Positions 23,332 through 27,041 of a stretch of DNA of 32,000 bases are shown here, one piece after another; the stretch's first letter is position 1, and every line of letters begins with the position of its first letter. The DNA is from Candidatus Baldrarchaeota archaeon. GTDB taxonomy: Archaea > Asgardarchaeota > Baldrarchaeia > Baldrarchaeales > DXJG01. The stretch is from positions 60,517-92,516 of the forward strand of contig DXJG01000002.1 of NCBI GenBank assembly GCA_019056805.1, given 5' to 3'. The notes under the pieces were generated by a model that was given only the letters and a program-made list of their open reading frames with translations, did not search any database and was not told the origin of the DNA. A program made the translations under genes and the position numbers.

Positions 23332-23381
23332 GAAACATGATTGATACGCTAATTTTCTGTTTAACGTATCAATCATGTTTC
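23332..23381. promoter_or_regulatory. Perfect 17-bp inverted repeat with 16-nt spacer upstream of the protease gene
   Basis: GAAACATGATTGATACG (23332-23348) and CGTATCAATCATGTTTC (23365-23381). It lies downstream of a BRE/TATA-like GAAAAG-CTTAAATT (about 23294-23307) and upstream of the GAGG SD. Confidence 0.7.
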
Positions 23382-23403: not shown

Positions 23404-26400
23404 ATGAGAAAATGGCCACTATTACTAATATTTATTATATTGTTGACATCTTTTACCCCCTTATCGATAAACGAAACCATCAGCAGTTACTCAGATTCAT
23501 CAGAGAATATTTTCCATTTCAGCCGCAAAACATCCGCGGAACTTGAGAACATCCTTTACTCACCAAAAGTTTCCGATGACGAAAAAATCTCAGTAATACT
23601 AGTAGCGAAACGGAGTCTCAGTGCAAGCGAATACGATGAACTTGCAAATGTGTGTGAAATTTTAGCCAATACTAGCAGAGTTTTTGTAATAAGAACATTC
23701 AAAAACGACATTACACGTATAGCATCTCTCCCATTTACACTTTACTTAGATTCAGGGCTTAAAACCGCCGAACCTCATCTAATGGATACTTCCATTACAA
23801 CGCGCACAAACTACGCATATTATGTGAAAGATGTTTCTAACCAAAATGTAACTGGCAAAGGAATCAAAATAGGAATTATCGATACAGGAATAGACTGGAG
23901 ACATCCATTCTTCTATTATGATGATGGACTGACTTGGGAGGTTATAAACGAAACCTTTGCTATGCTACCAAACGGGACTCTATGTAATTATTCCTTTATA
24001 GACGTTGTAACTGTTCAGCCAGCTGCTCAGGGAGCTCCATCAGGAGATCTTGTAATACCAGTTCCCGATGGAGTGTTCAATATAGGCTATGAATACCTTT
24101 ACCTAGATCTCGATAATGACAGCAAACCCGATGTAGATCCCGACAATCCTCAGAGGATAGAATATGGAATCTTAATAGACTCTGATGGGAATGGTATCCC
24201 GACAGCAGGTGATTTTATTAAAATGTTACGAACACCAAAAATCAAGAAGATCCTTGATCAAAGATCATATCCCTACACCGTATATATTAGTGGAGTAAAC
24301 CTATCACAATTTGATCCTGTAGATTCTTCCGGAGGGGGGGGCATGGTGCTCACGTCGCAGGTATAATTCTAGGAGGTCATAGTTTAATGAAGATACATGG
24401 AGTAGCACCTGACGCGGAAATTTACGTTGTTGCTAACGGGGGATATTTCACATCTGAAAACGTTATCTACGGAATGACATGGCTTGCACAAGAGAACGTT
24501 AGCGTAATAAATATGAGTTTTGGCGGAACAATGGGATACTTAGATGGTTCAGATCCATGGGATATAGCAATAAATGATTTATTCAAACAGGGAATTATAT
24601 CGATTGTATCCGCTGGGAATGACGGTAATAAAAACCATCATATCGAAGTAGAAATACCAGCATTAAGTAACGTAAATTTAACGTTTAATGTTCATGACTT
24701 AAACATATATCTAAATATTCTATGGAGAGAACCTTGGAGTAACCTAGAATTCTACATAATTTCACCATATGGAAATGAATACAATCTAGGATCTTTTACA
24801 AATCCCTTATTTGTAGACATTCCAGGAGTAAACATTTCTTGTACAAGCTCTATGTCACCCAGATACACCCGTCAATTCCTAATAAGCATATATAACCTTA
24901 CACCTCTAGACGGAGCTATATGGACACTAAAGATCCGCAATCCGACAAACAAGATGCAGAAAATAAATGGTTACCTCTTGTGGTCAACCTCTAACACATG
25001 GAATCCGCCATACCTAAGTAAAGAGCACACAATTACCTCTCCAGCTACGGCAGACTCAGCAATAGCGGTTGGAGCATTAACTAAAGATGGTTGGTTAACG
25101 TCTTACAGCAGTATAGGACCAAGAATTGACGGAGTTAATAAGCCAGAAATTTGTGCACCAGGTGGACACTATGACCTAGGATATGATAACCCCTATATTC
25201 TCTCAGTTGACGGCGATGTGTCCAACGGTCAGCCTCCATATACCCATGGACATGGATATTATACGTATATGTGTGGAACAAGTATGGCAGCTCCCCACAT
25301 CACGGGTTTTGTAGCACTTCTTCTACAGGATAACCCAAATCTATCACCAACGGAGATTAGAGAGTTACTATTTCTATCTACAGGATATACACATTTCCTA
25401 CCTCACACTGTGTATCCCATGCCTGATGATACCGTAGGCTACGGTGGATTCGGATACATGAATATTCCACAGCTACAAACTGACGGAATTAATGGACCAG
25501 GACCTGTTTATGTTACCTCATGGTACCCATCTGGTTTTTCCATCGCTTATAATAATTGGCTCTCTGGTAGTCGAGGTATCATTGTTGACGGTGACGACAA
25601 TGACTGGTTAATATACTATCCAGTAATAATACATAATGATTCAAGATGGTACGAAGAATATAGTTTCAAGTTATATTCATGGCATGAAAATGAGTCGCAT
25701 ATCTTCTTCTACATGAAATTTAGAGTAAACTATGTTCCCGTTGGATATATGATTAATGTTTATATTGGCAGGGAAAGACCAGGCTTCATGGGTGTTGTGG
25801 ATTATTATTTACCTGAATGGAAACTTTCCTACAACACTTCCTCTGGAATATCTCAGTTAGAGTTGTGGAATAATCAAACAAATCAGTATGGGGTAATGCC
25901 AGCTGGCGGATTTTTCGGGGTAAGCACAGGATTTTCATCGATAGATGGTAACTGGCTTATAGAATTCTATGTTCGAAAAGATTATATTGAAATGCAAAGC
26001 TTAAGCGAAGCAATAATATATTTTGCAGTATATGACATAAACTACGCGGCTCTCTTAAACAACAATGACCCTTACAATAGACCTGGAGCTTCATTCTATG
26101 CATCTATAGATCAAACACCCGTAGCTAGTTATGTAAACACAACATATGTTAGTAATAGTCATGGAATGTATATAGATATAGTAACATCGCTTAATGACTA
26201 CTGGGGCAATGTAAGCAGAGTTCTACTTATGAGCTACTCACCCAGCGGAACTTCTACAATCATATATATGGAATATAATTCTAACACTAATCTCTGGGAA
26301 GCTAGTTATAGCATCACCCCAGCAAATCAAAGCATAGGCGAGTTTAAGAACATATTGATAATTTACGACGAATTAGGAGCGAAAACAACAATAAATTCAC

Positions 26401-27041
26401 CGCCAACAGTCATGTATACGTTAATTGACAATGTTGCACCTCTAATATCACTTGAAATACCAATGTACGCTACTGGAACGATTCAAATCAACTGGACCGT
26501 AAATGAGGAAAATCTCAAGAATTTAACATTGTATATCGACTCTGACAAATACGATGTCCTCGGAACTAACATCTTCACTTGGGATACAACACAATACGAC
26601 GATGGAAACCATATAATCAGATTATATGCTCAAGATGCTGGCGGACTTGAAAGCGAAGTTATAGGAAATGTTATTGTTGATAATACACCTCCAGCAATAA
26701 TCATAATTTCTCCGATTAACAACACAAGAATAAGTGAGGATTCAATAGAGGTAACTTGGCAAGCCTTTGACAATGTAAAAGTAGATCATTTCGATATCTA
26801 CCTGGATGGAGTATTAATAATGCAAAATGTTTCAGCAAGTCAAAGAAGCGCTACTATAACCGAATTATCACAAGGAACACACGTATTAAAGATAAAAGTG
26901 TACGACGAAGTTGGAAATTACTCAGAAGCGACACTTATATTCACATACAAACCACCGACAATAATGTATATAGTAGCAGCAACCCTCATAATAGGATGCG
27001 CCGTTGCAGTAATTCTAATCAAAAGAAGAAAAACCACTTAA
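23404..27041 (+). pseudogene. Secreted, membrane-anchored S8 (subtilisin-like) protease, frameshifted at a G8 tract; about 1212 aa if in frame
   Basis: ORF1 (23404-24366) has the signal peptide, propeptide and catalytic Asp (IIDTGID, 23881). His motif HGAHVAG starts at 24342 in the frame of ORF2. ORF2 (24387-27041) has SAGNDG, catalytic Ser (GTSMAAPH, 25281), Ig-like repeats and a C-terminal TM helix followed by KRRK. Confidence 0.85.
24334..24341 (+). repeat. G8 homopolymer at the protease frameshift
   Basis: TCC GGA GGGGGGGG CAT. G6 or G9 would restore the frame. Confidence 0.9.

Follow-up and report, generated by a model that had tools for sequence, protein, structure and literature searches.

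Is the subtilase gene of a Baldrarchaeota archaeon, whose reading frame is broken by a run of eight guanines directly in front of the codon for its catalytic histidine, switched on and off at this run, translated across it, or simply put out of action? The gene lies in a stretch of 32,000 nucleotides (the window; C9:60517-92516), which belongs to a 1.92-Mb, 35%-GC metagenome-assembled genome (MAG) of 18 contigs, scaffolded with Ns. Two consecutive open reading frames (ORFs), ORF1 and ORF2, flank the run, which is called G8 in the following; an earlier reading of the same letters (the original prediction) had proposed it as a candidate switch of a cell-surface protease. The frame break is a real feature of the DNA and is specific to the lineage of the window, and the gene probably represents a young slippage allele, null or leaky, at a hypermutable tract; in the dominant genotype, the reading frame of the subtilase is thereby disrupted.

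Judged from their motifs, ORF1 and ORF2 are the two halves of a single S8 subtilase of 1211 or 1212 residues, which bears a signal peptide and is anchored at its C-terminus (coordinates in Table 1). The catalytic Asp lies in ORF1, within the motif GIIDTGI; the catalytic His is encoded by the first codon of HGAHVAG, which abuts G8 directly and stands in the -1 frame upstream of the ATG of ORF2; the ORF2 frame further carries the Asn of the oxyanion hole (SAGNDG) and the catalytic Ser (GTSMAAPH). This placement of the triad, which the original prediction had already given, holds by coordinates and by the codons of Asp and Ser. The His is assigned from alignment to the HGTH motif of subtilisin and from family knowledge, its counterpart being the residue that we take to be His64. 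The triad order Asp-His-Ser and the oxyanion Asn of the S8 family are thus present across both halves, and the catalytic domain is distributed over two frames rather than encoded in one uninterrupted ORF. The ORF2 frame is open from 24318, and the first ATG, GTG or TTG in it is the one at which ORF2 can be called. Pfam PF00082 matches the ORF2 frame with an E-value of 1.1e-49 and ORF1 only weakly (8.8e-4, profile positions 1-23), and all four S8 motifs are covered when the intact ortholog is aligned to PDB 9ues, 3afg and subtilisins. The motifs IIDTGID, GHGxHVA, AGNxG and GTSMAxPH also align with Tk-SP of Thermococcus kodakarensis (PDB 3afg) and with other S8 subtilases; unlike Tk-SP, the protease considered here carries about 150 inserted residues that separate Asp from His, and its middle region, which is long and unassigned, is followed by Big_7 Ig-like domains and a membrane anchor at the C-terminus. 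A functional 'split subtilase' assembled from the two products is ruled out, since ORF2, which starts only past the catalytic His, also lacks a signal peptide.

G8 is the sole lesion in this 3.6-kb gene, as had been predicted: with six guanines the frame reads through to 1211 residues and encounters no further stop, and with nine it would yield 1212, both forms including the membrane anchor. No other G/C run in the window is as long, the next reaching five, which bears out a second detail of the original description. Past the tract, ORF1 continues for seven out-of-frame residues (MVLTSQV).

The tract reads G8 in six assemblies (the NCBI MAG, two JGI metagenomes and three Logan runs), obtained by different pipelines from at least three sample sets. 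Logan contigs of runs X1 and X2, from the presumed source study, and of run X3, from another study, show no differences and no gaps across the tract; the X3 contig extends over 1520 nt (24007-25526), and the X4 contigs leave 24316-24442 uncovered. An exact-protein look-up returned the identical ORF1, with the same MVLTSQV end, from JGI 3300004069, JGI 3300037673 and Logan SRR3723048, and these loci match the window at 100% identity, all with G8. Adapter tails on the contigs mark the libraries as Illumina Nextera. Nor do homopolymers break reading frames in excess across the genome: two long ORFs are split by a frame change at 24 of 9494 A/T runs of six or seven, which at about 0.26% equals the rate for random positions (52 of 20000), and at none of the 72 A/T runs of at least eight (both strands); among homopolymers of eight or more, G8 alone separates two long ORFs. 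The genome has five G/C runs of at least eight, against about 4.7 expected by extrapolation from shorter runs, so that the existence of a G8 is in itself unsurprising; runs of exactly seven are depleted (six, against about 21 expected by extrapolation), and the length distribution is non-monotonic. The break is therefore observed as DNA, and an assembly artefact is unlikely. The source sample also contains a second strain, about 90% identical, seen in a low-depth contig of 226 nt with 19 differences (window 24490-24688, run X2).

In the relatives, the gene is a single ORF of 1212-1299 residues in every case. The genome of the same genus (G001) has one continuous ORF of 1230 residues, 77% identical, in which the site reads GAC TCA AGC GGG CAG GGA CAT (DSSGQGH). 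In the sister lineage (L023 and the 1212-residue proteins P0002 and P0123-P0125; 93% identity in amino acids, 91.8% in nucleotides over 13.6 kb, with synteny kept), it reads GGA TGG GGA CAT, corresponding to DSSGWGH; two further homologs read GQGH (P0004) and GYGH (P0005). Orthologs at 93%, 77%, 68% and 55% identity are continuous, carry G-x-G-H without a tract, and are 2 nt shorter here than the window. The repeat is thus not kept across these related strains and species, and neither the shift site nor the two-ORF layout was found among the orthologs examined, which weakens the case that the original prediction had made for a switch. By these alignments, the family motif is G-x-G-H with variable x and no homopolymer, and the pure G run is specific to one lineage. 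Close homologs of the protease (more than 50% identity) fall into no more than four clusters, all metagenomic. In a collection of 15 billion proteins, the 90% cluster contains the 884-residue ORF2 of the window and four full-length proteins of the sister lineage, all of the W type, and nothing else; the cluster of ORF1 contains only two shortened forms of the G8 type, of 320 and 307 residues. Scans of public contigs, metagenomic and genomic, for the two sides of the tract with a spacer of any length gave no match; as these scans exclude records near the window, they carry no information on other tract lengths.

The codons behind the break have remained under purifying selection. The ratio of nonsynonymous to synonymous substitution rates (dN/dS) was obtained by aligning the read-through gene, codon by codon, with L023 and L009, and G001 served as the outgroup for polarising the changes. 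Relative to the sister lineage it is 0.15 for the whole gene, 0.21 before the break and 0.11 over the 900 codons after it, the last value lying among those of the housekeeping genes on either side (0.04-0.17). In the downstream part, the branch of the window has accumulated 18 nonsynonymous and 42 synonymous changes and that of the sister 22 and 40, and a neutral phase beyond about 5-8% of the window branch is rejected. The promoter region is conserved as well. The break is therefore recent or bypassed, and the gene was functional until very recently or is still used. An old, decayed pseudogene is ruled out by the single lesion, by the dN/dS values on both sides of it and by a window branch that evolves no faster than its sister; the statement in the original prediction that the gene is not decayed thus stands.

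The fixed G8, the absence of a tract in the relatives and the lack of recoding hallmarks, described below, make a young slippage allele the most economical reading of the locus. We infer that the glycine codons of G-x-G-H before the catalytic His turned into a pure G run only in the lineage of the window; the simplest path would lead from GGA GGG GGA, by a synonymous change, to GGA GGG GGG, with an in-frame G6, and from there by slippage to G8, which would correspond to two bases gained over G6 or, alternatively, one base lost from an in-frame G9. When begun at the normal start, translation would stop eight codons past the tract. With ORF1 cut short, and ORF2 devoid of the His and of a signal peptide, active protease would be made at most in a leaky fashion: either none at all, or the small share that spontaneous -1 slippage on the run would yield. 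The archaeon appears to rely on NucS-type mismatch repair, which in mycobacteria leaves loops of 1-2 nt unfixed; the tract would thus be an intrinsic indel hotspot that could revert. Similar one-base breaks at homopolymers occur elsewhere in the genome, in a second subtilase and in a csa3-like gene, both at A6.

Several observations weigh against a young slippage allele, or against the breadth of its evidence. Homopolymer breaks affect two of the four subtilase genes, which could reflect a switch in use or a tolerated bypass, and the same can be said of the complete lack of decay behind the break. In another gene, described below, a tract reads G11 or G12 in different assemblies of the same strain, so that tract lengths may be dynamic. 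The evidence at G8 consists of assembled consensus contigs, in which minor subpopulations with G7, G9 or G6 would be invisible, and all copies of G8 belong to one clonal strain, so that the samples do not represent independent lineages.

On the conservative reading, the locus would be no more than a young frameshift allele of the usual kind, in an extracellular protease that is dispensable, and its practical use would lie in annotation: the called ORFs of 320 and 884 residues are halves of one gene, and the break between them is real. Homopolymer frameshift alleles as such are already known; here they are seen in a new case, an Asgard-type archaeon. Several one-base homopolymer knock-outs in a NucS-only archaeon, two of its four subtilases among them, also bear on the protein-degradation capacity that is inferred from Asgard MAGs.

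The alternative that survives best is a true contingency locus, in which the surface protease is turned ON and OFF reversibly and stochastically and the assemblies have captured the OFF majority. Evolved phase variation is unproven at this locus, and we regard it as possible and on balance unlikely. The defining element of such loci, a hypermutable repeat within an ORF that sets the frame, is found here in the form of G8, with G6 and G9 in frame; the tract lies in a surface-protein gene that shows no other damage and is under purifying selection. Poly-G and poly-C tracts switch genes in Campylobacter and Neisseria. A C7 tract in glpK of Mycobacterium tuberculosis, a bacterium without MutS and MutL, is likewise described as homopolymer phase variation (10.1101/717272; PMC10334774 as cited in PMC11551767). 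With all these loci, G8 shares a G/C run of 7-8 nt within an ORF, the abolition of the protein by one-base slippage and an otherwise intact gene; there, however, ON and OFF lengths recur in isolates and the tract is kept across strains, whereas here only the OFF length, G8, is seen in one clonal lineage of an uncultured archaeon. Homopolymer frameshifts as a means of gene regulation in prokaryotes, including archaea, are a known idea (PMC2831843); the survey in question proposed a general, reversible inactivation and, as here, included surface-protein genes silenced in this way. Its signal resided in poly(A/T) near 5' ends, with poly(G/C) showing no 5' bias, whereas here a poly-G tract lies 26% into the gene, a position away from the 5' end that speaks against a contingency locus.

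The repair genes of the archaeon are compatible with unstable tracts. NucS is present (106 bits), and neither MutL nor MutS domain I was found in this 91%-complete genome, in which only a MutS_V-type protein matched. The NucS of Mycobacterium smegmatis leaves indels of 1-2 nt unrepaired, which its authors tie to homopolymer phase variation (PMC11551767); NucS-type repair with this property would be common to the present archaeon and to systems of the M. tuberculosis type.

The other long G/C runs of the genome point in the same direction. Two of the five runs of at least eight break ORFs of a surface type, G8 and a G11, and two more, both G8, sit in 5' regions; the fifth is an intergenic C8. 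Relative to runs of seven, those of at least eight are over-represented (5 against about 1.3 expected, P about 0.01). The G11, the longest G run in the genome, breaks an Ig-like gene, and the -1 frame behind it matches the in-frame continuation of a homolog of 1141 residues in G025 (57% identity, E 2.7e-20). The MAG and JGI 3300037673 have G11, giving an OFF product of 257 residues; Logan SRR3732688 has G12, which is in frame and gives an ON product of 294, the other 4613 nt being identical. This difference represents either genuine variation in tract length or noise, from Illumina sequencing or from assembly, at a long G run. The G8 on C18 neighbours a membrane-protein ORF of 103 residues, whose ATG would come into frame with G7; this ORF ends in TAA, followed by an in-frame open stretch of 260 residues, and orthologs of it were not found in G001-G003. 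That these tracts (the protease G8, the G11/G12 of the Ig-like gene and the two G8s in 5' regions) form a set of poly-G contingency tracts, switching secreted and surface proteins in an Asgard-type archaeon without MutS and MutL, seems doubtful to us; if true, repeat-mediated phase variation would here be described for the first time in Asgard archaea. To our knowledge, such variation has so far been documented almost only in host-associated bacteria, and dynamic tract lengths at the level of reads would extend it to archaea near the eukaryotic stem.

Against the switch stands the uniformity of G8: no variation in tract length was seen in six assemblies, consensus contigs with limited power to reveal it, and the 15-billion-protein collection yielded no full-length, ON allele of the strain. 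None of the orthologs has the tract, which hence has not been maintained. Surface genes that are dispensable, moreover, are also those expected to tolerate neutral knock-outs by slippage. The evidence, as far as consensus contigs carry it, leans towards a fixed OFF allele, the outcome that the original prediction had set against its own proposal. The reversible switching that it proposed remains plausible as a mechanism, given NucS, the failure to find MutL and MutS domain I and the G11/G12 pair; at this tract it is not supported, given the uniform length, the missing ON allele and the restriction to one lineage. The bias of long G tracts towards surface proteins, the repair background and the G11/G12 difference keep switching plausible.

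Recoding, by which a functional full-length protease would be made from the G8 template through -1 frameshifting or through addition of one G by a slipping RNA polymerase, appears improbable. Formally, the tract contains a zero-frame slippery heptamer, G_GGG_GGC, of the pattern X_XXY_YYZ, and a -1 shift on it would give DSSGGGGHGAH, in which the motif is kept; the predicted junction peptides are DSSGGGGHGAHVAG for a -1 shift or G9 and DSSGGGHGAHVAG for G6. The codons involved, GGG (10.5%) and GGC (12.9%), are the two rarest glycine codons here, and the downstream part shows no decay. The match is uninformative, however, as any run of eight contains an in-phase heptamer, and with G as Y it is atypical for tandem slippage, Y being usually A or U (PMC8211752). 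No stable structure follows 5-9 nt downstream that could stimulate a shift: folds of 58, 98 and 147 nt behind G8 are no better than shuffled sequence (z +1.44, +0.39 and +0.26), and those of the orthologs at the site are similar. The site is, furthermore, not conserved. Together, the missing structure and the missing conservation count against the -1 frameshifting on G-GGG-GGC that the original prediction had considered. For the transcriptional route, efficient slippage is known on A/T runs of nine or more, and G8 is both shorter and of the other base type.

The closest precedent for recoding is fucA1 of S. solfataricus, the gene of an alpha-L-fucosidase that is expressed by -1 frameshifting at A_AAA_AAT (PMC1616953; PMC8211752); it is interrupted in some strains, yet about 5-10% is expressed in this way (PMC8211752). 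Both cases concern an archaeal gene that is split into two ORFs at a homopolymer, is continuous in relatives that differ within the run (by one base in fucA1), and would be restored to an enzyme by a -1 shift. They differ in that the fucA1 heptamer consists of A and T, is flanked by rare codons and comes with a putative stem-loop and an experimentally proven full-length product, whereas the present gene has G8 and no structure. The fucA1 heptamer itself recurs in phase at the breaks of the second subtilase and of the csa3-like gene. In the former, the two halves overlap at CTA AAA AAT, with an A6 that is reproduced in JGI 3300004069, JGI 3300037558 and Logan SRR3723048; an A7 or a -1 shift would restore exactly the length of the continuous homologs with which it was compared, and the G001 counterpart spans only the C-terminal half. 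The csa3-like gene stops just after AGA AAA AAT CCA TGA, and its -1 frame continues with a typical winged-helix sequence (SMISQYVKELEKLGMV...). Of the S8 genes in the genome, four in number, two are intact and two are broken, an apparent enrichment to which no sound P value can be attached.

The weakest alternative, an intact gene whose tract is in truth G9 or G6, could appeal to a MAG scaffolded with Ns, to homopolymers as classic error sites and to the G11 tract that differs between assemblies, but G8 in six assemblies, the rarity of consensus errors at 8-mers on the Illumina platform and the lack of a genome-wide excess of homopolymer breaks leave it only the slimmest chance, so that the assembly error which the original prediction had kept in reserve can largely be set aside.

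Table 1. Features of the protease locus and of the other homopolymer-associated loci; coordinates without a contig are positions in the window.
Feature	Coordinates	Strand	Description
Inverted repeat	23332..23381	.	21 nt, 95% complementary, 8-nt loop; 22 nt upstream of protease ATG
ORF1	23404..24366	+	320 aa (amino acids); signal peptide, propeptide-like region, catalytic Asp160, ~150-aa insert
Asp160 codon	23881-23883	+	in GIIDTGI of ORF1
G8 tract, frame break	24334..24341	+	2 nt longer than ortholog spacing; G6 or G9 in frame
Heptamer G_GGG_GGC	24336..24342	+	zero-frame X_XXY_YYZ, from sequence; criteria PMC8211752
HGAHVAG motif	24342..24362	+	-1 frame relative to ORF1, upstream of first start codon of ORF2
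Catalytic His codon	24342-24344	+	first codon of HGAHVAG
ORF2, as callable	24387..27041	+	884 aa, -1 frame relative to ORF1; remaining S8 domain, ~330-aa middle region, Big_7 Ig-like domains, C-terminal transmembrane helix
Catalytic Ser codon	25281-25283	+	in GTSMAAPH of ORF2
C-terminal anchor	26955-27038	+	hydrophobic transmembrane helix, then KRRKTT tail
csa3-like gene	C9:558658-559212	minus	heptamer near 558672
G8	C15:71976-71983		10 nt upstream of ATG of second subtilase
Second broken subtilase	C15:71993-73518 (L028 1594-3119)		63-aa signal-peptide ORF and 461-aa S8 frame
G11	C18:35894-35904 (L027 2395-2405)	minus	longest G run in genome; breaks 257-aa Ig-like (Big_13-like) gene
G8	C18:43964-43971 (L029 965-972)		6 nt after ATG (ATG GAC TT, then run), 7 nt before NCBI GTG start

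Long tracts are also seen in the same-genus genome G001, where three C10/G10 tracts occur in paralogous genes with the motif YPW[IV]K..LPP.NI.D..KTP (C301:601-610, C301:3108-3117 and C153:4-13; L061, L064 and L058); one of them splits a frame of 115 from one of 366 residues and another is in frame (462 residues), in a genome that is 9% contaminated and in contigs of uncertain origin.

Around the protease gene, the window encodes GatD/GatE, ELP3, PyrK/PyrD, Nop56 and fibrillarin, an archaeal gene set; the Nop56 shares 86% identity with a protein labelled Candidatus Odinarchaeota at NCBI. The inverted repeat upstream of the protease, which is conserved in the sister lineage, may act as an operator or form a hairpin in the 5' untranslated region; the upstream region that includes it is 96% identical to that of the sister lineage (L023), against about 92% overall.

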